Positions 37,814 through 41,979 of a DNA stretch of 64,000 nucleotides are shown here, one piece after another; position 1 is the stretch's first letter, and each line of letters begins with the position of its first letter. The notes under the pieces are model-generated. The model had not been told where the DNA came from, did no database searches, and saw only the letters and a list, made by a program, of their open reading frames with translations. Made by a program: the position numbers and the translations under genes. Location of the stretch: NCBI GenBank assembly GCA_947598485.1, contig CANQFJ010000003.1:7754-71753 (forward strand), written 5' to 3'. Origin of the DNA: an uncultured Bacilli bacterium (GTDB lineage: Bacteria; Bacillota_I; Bacilli_A; RF39; UBA660).

Positions 37814-38200
37814 TTACGCTCCTGCTGCTGGACCTGTTGGACCTTGAGGAATAGTTAAGTTTAATACATAATTTGGTGCAGTACCTGTTATAGTTGCTGT
37901 AGCATCACTACCTGGAGCACCCGTTGTAACTGAACCAATTGCTAATGTAGGTGTTTCACCATCTGCACCAGCAGCTCCCGTTTCACCAGTAGGACCTGTA
38001 GCTCCTTGAGGGATAGTAAAATTAAGCGTATAGTTTCCATCAGAACCTGTTATAGTTGCTGTTGCTGGTGTATCAGGATCAGTAGTATCTACTGTTCCAA
38101 TTGCAAGTGTTGGTGCTGGACCTGTAGCTCCAGTGGCTCCAGTTTCACCAGTAGGACCAGTGGCTCCCGTTGGGCCCGTTGCTCCTGTAGGACCTGTTGC
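37814..38200 (-). pseudogene. C-terminal fragment of an interrupted collagen-like gene (G-X-Y triplets plus two PTLAIG...IPQG modules)
   Basis: The frame opens only two codons after an in-frame TAA. There is no ATG and no Shine-Dalgarno; the track's M is a TTG. The sequence continues the G-P/A-T repeat of the fragment at 41726-41979. Confidence 0.75.
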
Positions 38201-38228
38201 CAATGGTTAAAAGTGGCACATAGAAAAA

Positions 38229-38259
38229 AAGCAAAATAAAAAGTGGTGTTTAAACCACT
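38229..38259 (-). terminator. terminator after the element cargo gene
   Basis: AGTGGT-gtttaa-ACCACT hairpin (38242-38259), followed in minus orientation by TTTTTATTTTGCTTTTTTT. Confidence 0.55.
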
Positions 38260-38267
38260 AATTTTTA

Positions 38268-39815
38268 TTAAATTTTTTCGTAAACAGCTCTATATTTAGC
38301 TAAAAGTATACCTGTTTCTTTACCATCTTTATCAGTAACAGGAGTTCCATTAACAGATACCATTTCCCAACCCATAAATCTGTATCCAGGTTTAGCTTTA
38401 GGAGGTTGCATTACATACTCTGTTATATCCCCTCTTCTACCAAGAGTAACTGTTCCTTTCATTAGACCTGTGCCTGGTTCAGCAAATCCTTCACATGCAT
38501 TTGTATCGCATGAGAATTCAGTAAACCAAATACAACCAGATCCATCTTTTCCACAAACGCCTTCATTCCAATAGTCTGTATTGCCACCAGTACGACGTAC
38601 TTTTAAATCTGGTAATGTACTATAGAAATGGAATTCTACAGGATGTTTTTCTGGAACTTCTTCTTTACCTTCTTGATCTTTAGCTAGTCTTTCTGCTTCT
38701 CTCTTTAATGCATCATTAATAACTTTCCAATCATCCTCTGTAAGTTCTCTTTGATTAGAAGCTCCACCTTCACTCTTTGTTGAAGTATTGTTAGATTGTT
38801 TAGTTGTATTTGAACTGCTAGATGAAGAATTACTAGATTGCTTAGATGTATTCGCATTACTTGATGAAGAATTAGTAGATTGTTTAGACTTTTCAGTCGT
38901 ATTTGAGCTATTTGCTTGTTTAGCAGTATTTTGAACTTGTTTAGCAGCTTCCTCAGCTTGTTTTATTTTTTCAGCTTCTTCAGCGGCCTTTCTTTGAGCC
39001 TCTTCCTCAGCTTTTCTTTGGGCTTCTTCAGCTTGTTTTGCAGCTTCTTGAGCTAATCTCATTCTTTCAGCTTCTGCAGCTTTTTGAGCAGCAGCTTCTG
39101 CAGCAACTCTTGCTTCCTCAGCTAATCTTGCTTGTTCTTCTTGTAAAGCTTTTGCAGCCTTTGCTTTAGCCTCAGCAGCTATTCTTTCAGCTTCAGCCTT
39201 TTTTCTAGCTTCTTCAGCTTTTTGAGCTTCTTCTTGAGCTTTTTTGGCAGCTTGATCAGCAGCGGCTTTTTGAGCAGCAGCGGCTTTTTGAGCTTCAGCA
39301 GCTTTCTTTTCTTCAGCCTTAGCAGCCTCTACTTTTGCTTTTGCAGCTTGTTTAGCTTGAGCAGTTCTAGCAGCTGTTACTTCGGCTTCAGCAGCAGCTT
39401 TAGCCTTTTTAGCAGTTTCAACTAAATCATTAGCCTTTTTGACTTCAGTTTCAGCAGCTTTTTGATTTGATGAAGCTTTTTCAACTTCCTTTTTAGTGCT
39501 TTCAACTTTAGCTTCAGCTTTTTCCTCAGCCTTATTAGCAGTTTCTACTTTAGCCTCAGCAGTTGCAACTTCTTTTTTAGCAGCTGTAACAGCTTTGTTA
39601 GCAGTTTCTACTTTTGCTTGAGCAACTTTAACTTCAGCTTCAGCCTCATTTAGTACTTTAGCTTGTTCAACATTAACTACATCTTTTTCAATGTAATTTG
39701 CTTTTTTGTCACTTTCTAGCGTTTTACTAACATCAACGCCTAGAGCATACATACCTGATGTAGCAACACCAGTAGCTAAAAATCCACTTAGTAATTTAAC
39801 TGGTAACTTTTTCAT
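38268..39815 (-). CDS. secreted Ala/Lys/Glu-rich coiled-coil surface protein with a Ser/Asn-rich linker and a Cys-containing C-terminal domain (cargo of the element)
   Basis: Signal peptide, then about 270 aa of AEAKxxAAK-type helical repeats and an SSNxT low-complexity tract. The C-terminal domain contains a GYRFMGW (Listeria-Bacteroides/InlB-B-repeat-like) motif. Confidence 0.7.
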   Translation of the reverse strand: MKKLPVKLLSGFLATGVATSGMYALGVDVSKTLESDKKANYIEKDVVNVEQAKVLNEAEAEVKVAQAKVETANKAVTAAKKEVATAEAKVETANKAEEKAEAKVESTKKEVEKASSNQKAAETEVKKANDLVETAKKAKAAAEAEVTAARTAQAKQAAKAKVEAAKAEEKKAAEAQKAAAAQKAAADQAAKKAQEEAQKAEEARKKAEAERIAAEAKAKAAKALQEEQARLAEEARVAAEAAAQKAAEAERMRLAQEAAKQAEEAQRKAEEEAQRKAAEEAEKIKQAEEAAKQVQNTAKQANSSNTTEKSKQSTNSSSSNANTSKQSSNSSSSSSNTTKQSNNTSTKSEGGASNQRELTEDDWKVINDALKREAERLAKDQEGKEEVPEKHPVEFHFYSTLPDLKVRRTGGNTDYWNEGVCGKDGSGCIWFTEFSCDTNACEGFAEPGTGLMKGTVTLGRRGDITEYVMQPPKAKPGYRFMGWEMVSVNGTPVTDKDGKETGILLAKYRAVYEKI

Positions 39816-39849
39816 AAAACATTTCCTTTCAATATAAATTTACACTTAT

Positions 39850-39878
39850 GTCATACTATATTATATGTCAAATGTCAA
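39850..39878 (-). promoter_or_regulatory. sigma-70-type promoter of the cargo gene
   Basis: In minus orientation, TTGACA (39873-39878) - 17 nt - TATGAC (39850-39855). The -35 lies within a tandem ATGTCAA ATGTCAA direct repeat. Confidence 0.45.
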
Positions 39879-39989
39879 GTTTTCCCCCATATTTATGCCT
39901 AATTTGGCAAATTTTTACAATAATAGTTTGTCAATTTTAATGAGTATTATACTTAATTATATTTGAATAAAATAAAATTGTGATGAATA

Positions 39990-40115
39990 ATGAAAGTAAA
40001 CGTTTATTACGATAATAACGGCATAGATATCAATAAAGCTATTGAAGATATCATAATAGAATCTTACTTTTTAGAAAATCAATCTTTTACGGGAGAAAAG
40101 ATAAAAGATGTATGA
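39990..40115 (+). CDS. possible 41-codon ORF overlapping the recombinase start ([41 protein letters not shown])
   Basis: Not in the ORF track. It overlaps the recombinase ATG by 8 nt. The Shine-Dalgarno is weak and coding status is uncertain. Confidence 0.2.
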   Translation: MKVNVYYDNNGIDINKAIEDIIIESYFLENQSFTGEKIKDV

Positions 40116-41703
40116 TAATTTTTTTAGAAAAATTACGACTATTAATTATATTATTTATGCAAGGCTATCCAAAGAAGAACAAGGAAAGAGTAAGGAAGAT
40201 CAAAGTAGAAGCATTAAAAATCAAATTATAATGTGTAAGAACTATATTGAAGAAGAGAAAAAATTATATCAAGATTGTCACTTTATTGAGGTAGCTATTT
40301 TAAAAGATGATGGAATATCTGGAACTACTTTTGATAGAGAAGATTTTCAAAAATTAGTAAGTTTAATTGAACAGAAAAAAGCCAATATGGTTATTACCAA
40401 AGATTTATCTAGGCTTGGAAGAGATCATATTCAAACTGACGATTATATAGAAAAATGGTTTCCTGAGCATAATGTTCGTTATGTTTCAATAATGGAAAAT
40501 ATTGATACATATGTTGATTCCGTTAGTAATGAAATTGCTCCCATTATAAACTGGAGTAATGAAAACTTTGCAAGACAAACATCTAAAAAAATCAAAAGAA
40601 CATTTAAAAATTATCGTGATACGGGAAAATGGACCGGTGGTGAACCACCTTTAGGCTATCAAATAGATGAGCGTAATAAATATCATCTTGTTATAGAACC
40701 TAAAGGTAAAGAAATTGTTGAAAGAATCTTTAAATTAGCATTAGAAAATAATAGCCTAGATAAAATTGCCAAAATTCTTACTGATGATAAAGTTCCTATT
40801 CCCTCATTAATGAAAAAAAGTAAAAGAAAAATCATAACCGAAACTTGGTCTTCACAAACAATTAAAAATATTTTAAAAAACGAGATATATACAGGAAATA
40901 TGGTACAAGGCAAAACCACTAGGCTAAATCATAAATCTAAGAAAATAATATATTTGCCTAAAGAACAATGGAGCATTACCAAAAACACCCATGAAGCTAT
41001 AATTGATCAAGAAACGTTTAATAATGTACAGTTAATATTTAAGTCTAATAAAAATAAAACTATTAAATCATATGATTATTTATTAAAGGGCATAATTAAA
41101 TGTCATGAATGTAAGCATTTAATTGGGATTCAGCATTATAAAAACCGTAGTAAGAACTATACAATCTGTAGCTTTTATCGTAAGCATGGTAATAAAAAAA
41201 GTGGATGTACTGCCCATCGATTTGCCTATGATGAAATAGAAAGTCTAGTATTAAAAAGTATTAAAAATAATTGTTTAAAATATGTTGATAAAACTAATAT
41301 GCTAAATATACTCAAAAAACAAGATTATGCATTTGAACAGGAAAATAATTTAAGAAAAAAAGTTGACAAATGCCATAAGGAAATTGAAATATTAAATAAA
41401 GAGCTTGATGATATTTATGAAGATAAATTAAAAGGGATTATTTCTATTGAGCAATTTCAAAGAATCATTAAAAGTAAACAAAAAGATCTTGAATATGAAC
41501 AAAATCAGTTAAAAAGATATTATTATGATTTAGAAAAAATATTAAAAGTACAAAGTGAAGATCAAAACGTTAATAAAATAGTAAATGATTTTTTAACTAT
41601 TAGTAAACCTAATAAATTATTAATAGTTAAATTAATTGATAAAATATCTTTAAGTGAAAATGGAACAATAAATATTTATTATAAAATTAAGCCTCCACGT
41701 TAA
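40108..41703 (+). CDS. large serine recombinase (resolvase catalytic domain, recombinase domain, zinc ribbon and coiled-coil)
   Basis: [12 protein letters not shown]...SRSIKNQ (catalytic Ser region), [30 protein letters not shown] and the zinc ribbon CHECKH...C....C.AH. The stop codon lies 4 nt from the element's terminal inverted repeat. Confidence 0.9.
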
Positions 41704-41979
41704 TAAGTGCCACTTTATCCCCTTAGCAGTAGCTCCCGTAGGGCCTGTTGGACCTGTGGCACCTTCAGGACCCGTTGCTCCTGTTGGGCCTGTAGCACCA
41801 GTAGGACCTGTAGCTCCAGTTGCTCCTGTTGGGCCAGTAGCACCAGTAGGGCCTGTAGCTCCAGTGGCTCCTGTAGGACCTGTAGTACCAGTTATACCTG
41901 TAGGTCCTGTTTCCCCTGTTGGACCAGTAGGTCCTTGTGGTATAATAAAATCAAGAACATAGTTAATTTCGTTGTTCAT
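41650..41979 (-). CDS. N-terminal fragment of the interrupted collagen-like gene (15 aa plus 23 G-X-Y triplets) reading into about 25 element-derived codons
   Basis: ATG preceded by a GGAAAGGAG Shine-Dalgarno. The G-P/A-T triplets end at the GC core (41726-41727). The tail [25 protein letters not shown] is antisense to the recombinase 3' end. Confidence 0.7.

Follow-up and report, generated by a model that had tools for sequence, protein, structure and literature searches.

The systems closest to the one treated here are gene-intervening elements of large serine recombinases. Skin lies in sigK and is served by SpoIVCA in Bacillus subtilis and by CD1231 together with CD1234 in Clostridioides difficile, and SPbeta lies in spsM and is served by SprA and SprB (PMC5025042, PMC4191935, PMC5499854). 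The gin element of Bacillus cereus ATCC 10987 measures 28.6 kb, interrupts gerE and has GirC, GirX and three recombinase genes (PMC5595907), and the yin element of yabG is likewise excised by a large serine recombinase (PMC10747680). Here we describe a 3.5-kb element that splits a collagen-like gene, called gene B below, in a 64-kb stretch of DNA from an uncultured Bacilli bacterium, the whole of which is referred to as the window. Gene B stands on the minus strand in two pieces about 3.5 kb apart, as read from the sequence and from the listing of open reading frames (ORFs) between 37600 and 42300. We favour, with moderate confidence, the view that this is a gene-intervening element like skin, SPbeta and gin, minimal in its make-up and with a new target, and that gene B would be expressed after excision. 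An earlier note on this DNA had stated that such a target was not known to its author as described, and in the paper library that we searched no mobile element was reported from a collagen-like or bclA gene.

Ends of the element and the split gene

The crossover point was mapped by laying out five complete elements, that of the window and those of four relatives (L005, L006, L085 and L087), which are 3,196-3,333 bp long. The sole dinucleotide common to both ends at a symmetric position in all five is GT on the plus strand of the window, which is AC on the coding strand of the gene. On either side of it stands a 22-nt arm (GTGCCACTTT....CA), and the two arms of an element are complementary at 13-18 of the 22 positions across the five elements. 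In the window 17 of the 22 positions of the left arm (P') are complementary to the right arm (P), the left arm is identical in L187, and the terminal inverted repeat (I1) is the longest and top-ranked inverted repeat of the region. The core reads GT when the gene strand is opposite to the recombinase and AC when both are on the same strand, and thus flips with the orientation of the insertion. A serine recombinase requires identical cores at both ends, and an asymmetric 2-bp core between imperfect inverted arms is what identifies the attachment (att) sites of large serine recombinases; by their layout the ends of this element are such sites.

The earlier note had placed the crossover at a GC dinucleotide bordered by 19-nt inverted repeats, and the shared core sits 3 bp outward of that GC on each side. 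The GC was rejected because the cores of the left and right sites (attL and attR) would then differ, being GC and AC in L005 and L006 and GT and AC in L085. In addition, a crossover at GC would leave a two-residue break in the triple helix, and the intact allele of the relatives described below has no such break. The alternative registers TT, TG and CA break the reading frame. As the crossover moves to GT, the junction peptide and the product length given before had also to be revised: a join at GC does compute as an in-frame ORF of 212 amino acids (aa), but with the interrupted series GAT-AT-GPT, whereas the join at GT is seamless and gives 210 aa. The separation of 3,525 bp likewise gave way to an element of 3,533 bp (neither 3,525 nor 3,527), which is the core-to-core distance.

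The proposal that precise excision restores the reading frame was borne out by the in silico join. At GT the flanks read GGA GCT AC/A GGT CCT (the stroke marks the crossover), and the resulting ORF of 633 nt has 32 unbroken G-X-Y triplets; joins made in the same way in all five complete elements leave the G-X-Y series uninterrupted every time. The reconstituted site, GGAGCT-AC-AGGTCC, is a quasi-palindrome made by the collagen codons themselves. The predicted attB junction sequences are GTAGGACCTGTAGCTCCCGTAGG and GTTGCTCCTGTAGGACCTGTAGCTCCCGTAGGGCCTGTTGG, and those predicted for the circular attP are CCCCTTAGCAGTTGCCAATGG and GTGCCACTTTATCCCCTTAGCAGTTGCCAATGGTTAAAAGTGGCAC. A pattern for attP (GTGCCACTTT-N27-AAGTGGCAC) also picks out, in the unrelated sequences L090-L092 from the Joint Genome Institute (JGI) collection, with a GC content of 0.53-0.56, repeated near-perfect palindromes of 46 nt that start with GTGCCACTTT and end with AAAGTGGCAC.

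Both halves of gene B are under purifying selection. Between the window and L005 the divergence of element and host is matched, the synonymous divergence (dS) being 0.90 for the recombinase gene and 0.79-1.4 for the host flanks, and in this comparison the ratio of non-synonymous to synonymous divergence (dN/dS) is 0.03 for the 5' fragment and 0.08, at a dS of 1.2, for the 3' fragment. The close relative L187 (dS 0.1-0.2) has the identical arm and junction, and the insertion therefore most probably predates the split between the window and L187. Within this pair the 3' fragment has accumulated 20.5 synonymous and 5.5 non-synonymous changes, a dN/dS of 0.10 that departs from neutrality with P = 6e-7. 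No start codon is found at the junction in the 3' fragments of L006, L085 and L087, and neither a frameshift nor a stop was found in any 3' fragment examined. Moreover, the intrinsic terminator of the cargo gene of the element, to judge from its position, insulates the 3' fragment from cargo transcription. As a half that has no start, is shielded by a terminator and is nevertheless under strong purifying selection, it argues that the gene is still expressed after excision; we infer that expression of the 3' half requires rejoining and that the split gene is still in use.

An uninterrupted allele in relatives, which the earlier note had proposed to look for, does exist. It was reached through the neighbouring GT2-TPR glycosyltransferase gene in four syntenic relatives (L188-L191, namely GCA_947624085.1 and three samples of the European Nucleotide Archive, ENA), whose identity to the window is 86% in gene A, the ORF preceding gene B, 86% in the GT2-TPR gene, 88% in an ABC ATPase and 80% in the type IV secretion (T4SS) genes. 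Their gene B is a continuous ORF of 157 aa with the same start peptide, unbroken triplets and the same terminal module, and it holds no element. For the gene lineage of the window itself no intact allele (>60% identity, full coverage) was found among 5.8 billion clusters.

A recombinase clade and its collagen-repeat sites

As the earlier note had stated, the insert encodes a large serine recombinase of 531 aa, an ORF of 41 codons and a secreted coiled-coil protein followed by a terminator; ORFs, Pfam and the stem with its T-run agree on this. The recombinase has the domains PF00239 (1.9e-18), PF07508 (2.5e-24) and PF13408 (1.3e-09) and matches the integrase family phrog_95 of PHROG (5.8e-93). 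Its Ser21, in the motif YARLS, is invariant in 32 homologues, and its dN/dS is 0.11 against L005 and 0.03 against L187. Sequence matches in the PDB are confined to catalytic domains, those of the TnpX N-terminal domain (2mhc) and of a putative conjugative-transposon recombinase (3g13).

A protein search returned more than 100 recombinase clusters (about 110, at 90% identity) with at least 47% identity, all of them from metagenomes or metagenome-assembled genomes (MAGs). The recombinase of L005 is 82% identical and occupies the same locus; that of L006 is 84% identical and lies at a different one. A scan of 185,579 species genomes gave 79 recombinase loci, and runs of G-X-Y triplets were present only in the four with at least 54% identity and in none of the 75 with 44% or less. 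After extension of the clade by further look-ups (P0012, P0016, P0008, P0055, P0087, P0107, P0121 and P0270), 12 distinct recombinases with 49-100% identity could be compared (window/L187, L005, L192, L006, L007, L008, L085, L087, L088, L098, L102 and L104). All 12 are bordered, after the stop codon, by GTGCCACTTT, 12 further nt and GT/AC, followed by collagen codons, and the consensus of their targets is ACn-GGn-sCn-AC-wGG-wCC, which codes for Gly-(Pro/Ala)-Thr/Gly-Pro. By the sites its members occupy, this is a recombinase clade not described before, whose insertions are always in collagen-repeat DNA.

An identical recombinase, P0107, stands at three different collagen genes (L104, L105 and L106), and another, P0087, at two (L102 and L103), which indicates recent mobility of the relatives. 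Small elements of the clade are 3.2-3.5 kb long, and those of L008, L088, L102 and L104 carry DnaB-, RecA- and SSB-like genes. Unoccupied sites are plentiful, as the two collagen genes of the window contain 14 matches to the 14-nt target core GGWSCNACWGGWCC where none is expected, spread over positions 37830-38167 and 41750-42359, and five of the 14 match the attB core restored by the join, GGAGCTACAGGTCC, at every position. Coding DNA for GPT repeats appears to be an intrinsically good attB for serine integrases, which would explain why unrelated collagen-like genes are hit repeatedly.

The viral contigs of IMG/VR contain no recombinase above 45% identity and no member of the clade, and a megablast of positions 36000-44000 against phage and plasmid collections gave no match. 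A known phage or plasmid was ruled out by these two results. Two viral contigs of IMG/VR, L118 (2250-2900; GC 0.45) and L144 (5480-5760; GC 0.58), hold distant serine recombinases (27-29% identity) that end within about 100 nt of a truncated collagen-like ORF, so that recombinases outside this clade may also integrate repeatedly in collagen-repeat genes. In L087, at 1308-6317 and just upstream of the element studied, two more large serine recombinase genes (660 and 500 aa) flank a G-X-Y fragment at 3319-3435, and these may be stacked insertions in one collagen-gene cluster.

Proposed mechanism and alternatives

The element is inserted within a Thr codon, at its AC, where the repeat DNA of a gene for a putative collagen-like surface glycoprotein encodes Gly-X-Thr/Gly-Pro. 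The codons GGn-sCn-AC/w-GGw-CC provide a natural quasi-palindrome around the asymmetric AC/GT, which is the geometry of an attB of large serine recombinases. A recombinase dimer would bind each end (attL being B'-GT-P' and attR being P-GT-B), GT would be cut, the half-sites would rotate and religation would follow. The predicted products are a 3,533-bp circle with a 22-GT-22 attP and the seamless gene of 210 aa with its 32 triplets. Such excision would most likely take place in a terminal cell type, that is the mother cell of a sporulating bacterium, with the element being retained in the germ line.

The 41-aa ORF is translationally coupled to the recombinase gene. A homologous ORF of 29-41 aa with a strong Shine-Dalgarno sequence precedes 10 of the 11 clade recombinases checked (in L098 the copy has a TTG start and was identified by eye), with the consensus MKV[IN]..F..dG...iE.LL.. 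and a dN/dS of 0.05-0.38. No match to it was obtained in Pfam, NCBIfam or PHROG. Its product may serve as a directionality factor or in some other accessory role.

A sporulation setting is suggested by the promoters of the target genes. The motif CATAnnnTA lies 27-31 nt upstream of the start in six of the eight independent target genes, against a background of 9% of 111 ORFs (searched over 60 nt; P = 1.3e-5). By the B. subtilis consensus we take this motif to be the -10 pattern of the mother-cell factors sigmaE and sigmaK. In C. difficile the -10 elements of sigmaE and sigmaK are very similar, and bclA1-3 are sigmaK-dependent (PMC3789822). The BclA_C domain on the targets of L085 and L098 is a second, indirect hint of sporulation. 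The syntenic relative L188 has, at 15840-19083, a SleB/CwlJ-type hydrolase of 140 aa (PF07486, Hydrolase_2, 68.7 bits) beside LigD, an ATP-dependent ligase and Ku. The combination of a SleB/CwlJ-type hydrolase with LigD and Ku is typical of spore formers in the Firmicutes. In the flanks of L008 and L088 sporulation genes were not found, the only matches being sub-threshold ones to LysM, SpoIID-like and ferritin-like families. The hosts of the clade are MAGs of Bacilli or Mollicutes, rabbit gut being the origin of many, and sporulation of these hosts is plausible. In the window CATACTATA stands 138 nt before the small ORF; as a candidate promoter by which sporulation would control the recombinase operon it was set aside, being not conserved in L005 and L006. 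Taken together, the developmental interpretation is the best-supported mechanism, though unproven.

Several points weigh against excision in development. The assembled contigs showed no excision junction, neither attB nor attP; the attP pattern had no match in viral contigs and only nine, unrelated hairpins of higher GC, in the JGI metagenomes, and these collections probably lack the organism. No sporulation genes lie within the 64 kb of the window, gene A of the window has only AATAGATTA at the position of the -10 motif and L006 has none. The small ORF is co-transcribed with the recombinase gene, which fits poorly with a classical directionality factor, as such a factor has to be missing when integration takes place. 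Regarding the selection on gene B, gene conversion from intact paralogues could mimic the purifying selection on the 3' fragment, and the insertions in the lineages of the window and of L005 could be independent events. Moreover the element is absent from L188, one of three equally distant sister lineages, and long vertical co-inheritance is unproven.

Next to programmed excision stands an explanation that is possible but somewhat unlikely, namely a purely selfish integrative element, comparable to a transposon of the Tn4451/TnpX type or to a small integrative mobilisable element. GPT-collagen DNA would be its safe multi-copy landing site, the host gene would be truncated and excision would serve only transfer. 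The identical recombinases at different collagen genes, the 14 further attB-like cores, the variable cargo with DnaB/RecA/SSB-type genes in larger relatives, and the restriction of PDB matches to the catalytic domains of TnpX and a putative conjugative-transposon recombinase all fit such an element, and so does the intact allele of the sister species; on the other side, a mere truncation does not account for the constraint on a promoter-less, start-less 3' fragment in a genome pair that shares the insertion, nor for the lack of frameshifts and stops in the fragments examined. The empty search for an intact allele of this gene lineage also speaks against it, and within the 3.5 kb neither a mobilisation gene nor an origin of transfer (oriT) is evident, no Mob or relaxase match being found among the ORFs.

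It seems improbable that the element is a reversible regulatory switch used by vegetative cells, as in 'active lysogeny' or phage regulatory switches. Excision would turn the collagen fibre on, re-integration at one of the many GPT sites would turn it off, and the cargo would be displayed while the element is integrated. This would suit the selection on both gene halves and the many alternative attB-like sites; a circle of 3.5 kb that has no replication function would, however, be lost at division unless quickly re-integrated, and no elements were seen at alternative sites within one species. The secreted, surface-type cargo with its own promoter region and terminator and the conserved control region of the recombinase operon can likewise be read in this way, as can the unproven sporulation of the host, whereas the sigmaE/K-like -10 motif of the target genes points to expression in the mother cell.

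A dead insertion in a plain pseudogene, which the earlier note had kept as its alternative and which the absence of excision junctions from assembled contigs would suit, is very unlikely, as both gene halves, the recombinase gene and the small ORF are intact and constrained, the cores at both ends are identical and the arms are conserved in L187.

Returning to a gene-intervening element, a more far-reaching version of it must be called doubtful when all its parts are taken jointly. The clade would be specialised on the GPT/GAT collagen-codon dyad (GGw-sCn-AC-wGG-wCC) and comprise the smallest known developmentally excised elements (3.2-3.5 kb), with the peptide of 29-41 aa as the smallest known directionality factor. 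It would toggle the surface of spores or cells of gut Bacilli between a collagen-like glycoprotein fibre in the excised state and the coiled-coil protein of the element in the integrated one.

If excision in development is correct, a structural gene for a collagen-like surface glycoprotein joins the genes rebuilt by programmed excision (sigK, spsM, gerE, spoVFB, yabG and others). The known intervening elements would gain a type that is much smaller and simpler, and the phenomenon would extend to abundant but uncultured low-GC gut Bacilli. The predicted junction sequences make ON/OFF or developmental control of the spore-surface fibres of gut commensals directly testable. Furthermore, compact recombinases with a short, definable and naturally repeated target, together with a candidate accessory peptide of 29-41 aa, can be of use in recombinase engineering.

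Features of the locus and known systems

The coordinates of the locus are collected in Table 1. Re-reading of the sequence together with the ORF list reproduced the two minus-strand fragments of the earlier note and its account of the 5' part.

Table 1. Features of the split collagen-like gene, the intervening element and adjoining genes (window positions)
Feature	Position	Strand	Remarks
Intervening element	38198..41730		3,533 bp including one copy of the GT core; from the core-to-core distance
Host half-site B' and left core	38172..38195 and GT 38196-38197		core the same at both ends in 5/5 complete elements
Left 22-nt terminal arm P'	38198..38219	+	TGCCAATGGTTAAAAGTGGCAC
Right 22-nt terminal arm P	41707..41728	+	GTGCCACTTTATCCCCTTAGCA; begins 3 nt past the recombinase stop codon
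Right core and host half-site B	GT 41729-41730 and 41731-41754		from the five-element comparison
Gene B, 3' fragment	37814..38197	-	9 G-X-Y triplets and two PTLAIG..IPQG beta-modules; no Shine-Dalgarno sequence
Terminator of cargo gene (intrinsic)	38242..38259	-	stem AGTGGTTTAAACACCACT, then T-run
Cargo gene, 515 aa	38268..39815	-	signal peptide, Ala/Lys/Glu coiled coil, Ser/Asn-rich linker, Cys-containing C-terminal domain
Divergent control region of cargo gene and recombinase operon	39816..39989		conserved blocks including direct repeat ATGTCAAATGTCAA
Small ORF, 41 aa	39990..40115	+	MKVNVYY..G....IEDIIIE..; overlaps the recombinase start by 8 nt
Large serine recombinase, 531 aa	40108..41703	+	Resolvase, Recombinase and Zn_ribbon_recom domains
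Gene B, 5' fragment	41731..41979	-	ATG at 41979, Shine-Dalgarno sequence, 15 aa, then 23 G-X-Y triplets
Gene A	41994..42455	-	Cys-rich N-terminus of the family, collagen region, first half of beta-module
GT2-TPR glycosyltransferase gene	42554..43636	+	Pfam; divergent from gene A

The collagen region of gene B matches PF01391 (1.7e-13), and in the unexcised state its 5' ORF reads through into the element and ends after 109 aa. The full-length members of the family have a Cys-rich N-terminus (MNNN..CC), a collagen region, a beta-module of about 38 aa, a second collagen region and a terminal module. The consensus of the beta-module in the other members is PATITVGTTTTGxPGTDAxVTNSGTxENVxLDFxIPQG. 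In some members BclA_C takes the place of the terminal module, and the targets in L085 and L098 carry it; PF18573 (BclA_C) was not found in a Pfam search of the collagen protein of the window, whose C-terminus consists of the two PTLAIG..IPQG modules.

The stop of gene A is in frame with the start of gene B, 14 nt downstream, and a beta-module that is unbroken in the other family members is here divided, one half lying in gene A and the other at the beginning of gene B. Between the halves lies an insert of 11 codons that contains a stop, a Shine-Dalgarno sequence and an ATG. On this evidence from the reading frames an ancestral single gene was split into two cistrons, A and B, and what is called the 5' fragment of gene B is not the ancestral N-terminus. 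L005, L188 and L192 have the same two cistrons, and purifying selection on both of them is strong. Genes for GT2-TPR proteins (54-86% identity) adjoin the target genes in L087, L098-101, L104, L188 and L192; a glycosyltransferase gene stands alongside the target in the window and at least six other hosts, and would serve the putative glycosylation of the collagen-like proteins.

Homologues of the cargo gene occur in L005, L006, L085, L087 and L187. The dN/dS of the cargo gene is 0.26-0.39, and its product was assigned to no family of Pfam, NCBIfam or PHROG. A rule that the cargo is always co-oriented with the target gene was dropped: it holds for the six elements with a coiled-coil cargo, and L098 has a different cargo in antisense. 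The divergent control region contains, in an alignment of the window, L005 and L006, non-coding blocks that are near-invariant although dS is about 1. Among them are the direct repeat ATGTCAAATGTCAA and TTTGGCAAAT.TTTACA, and such a block probably acts on the divergently oriented cargo and recombinase genes as their operator or promoter. No Rfam match to a structured RNA was found in the window.

Elsewhere in the window, positions 1533-10662 and 16789-31834 hold a type VII secretion (T7SS) locus and a segment of a conjugative element. The former has an FtsK/SpoIIIE-type, EssC-like ATPase of 1,532 aa and several ORFs of about 100 aa; the latter encodes a VirD4/TraG coupling protein, a VirB4-like ATPase and an M23/lysozyme protein, and the conjugation genes are syntenic in L188. 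Downstream of the locus there is an ORF of 3,531 aa on the minus strand (47450-58045).

Among mobile elements, Tn4451 and Tn5397 (TnpX and TndX) resemble the element in being small and in having as sole recombination enzyme a large serine recombinase at one end; circle excision and insertion at a 2-bp core, predicted for the window, are also shared, and the TnpX N-terminal domain is the best sequence match in the PDB. The elements of TnpX and TndX use a GA crossover dinucleotide. The element of the window differs in its GT/AC core, in the absence of a mobilisation gene, in the limitation of its insertion to collagen-repeat codons and in the low identity of its recombinase outside the catalytic domain.

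The target gene resembles those of the BclA proteins (BclA of B. anthracis and BclA1-3 of C. difficile) in its GPT-rich G-X-Y repeats, in the adjacent glycosyltransferase gene and in the sigmaK-type promoter motif on its relatives, and some targets of the clade end in BclA_C. In contrast, the gene of the window ends in two PTLAIG..IPQG modules of about 38 aa instead of BclA_C, and the Cys-rich MNNN..CCCC segment that forms its N-terminus is encoded by an ORF of its own, farther upstream.

The gin element, like that of the window, is a non-phage gene-intervening element with a large serine recombinase and a small accessory factor (a candidate one in the window). In both, the att sites have a central dinucleotide between imperfect inverted repeats, and precise excision, predicted for the window, restores a small ORF. 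However, gin splits the gene of a transcription factor, whereas the window element splits a collagen-like structural gene and has about one-eighth of the size (3.5 kb), one recombinase and one cargo gene, its excision being predicted; its small ORF (29-41 aa in the clade) has no detected similarity to anything.

With skin and SPbeta the element shares the interruption of a mother-cell gene (a role that is putative for gene B) by a serine-recombinase element, the functionality of both halves and the retention of the element in the germ line, which is predicted for the window. Skin and SPbeta are prophages or prophage remnants of 14-135 kb for which sporulation-specific excision has been demonstrated, and their targets are unique sequences, whereas the window comes from an uncultured host and the target in it is a repeat motif present many times, to which a whole clade of recombinases shows multi-site specificity.

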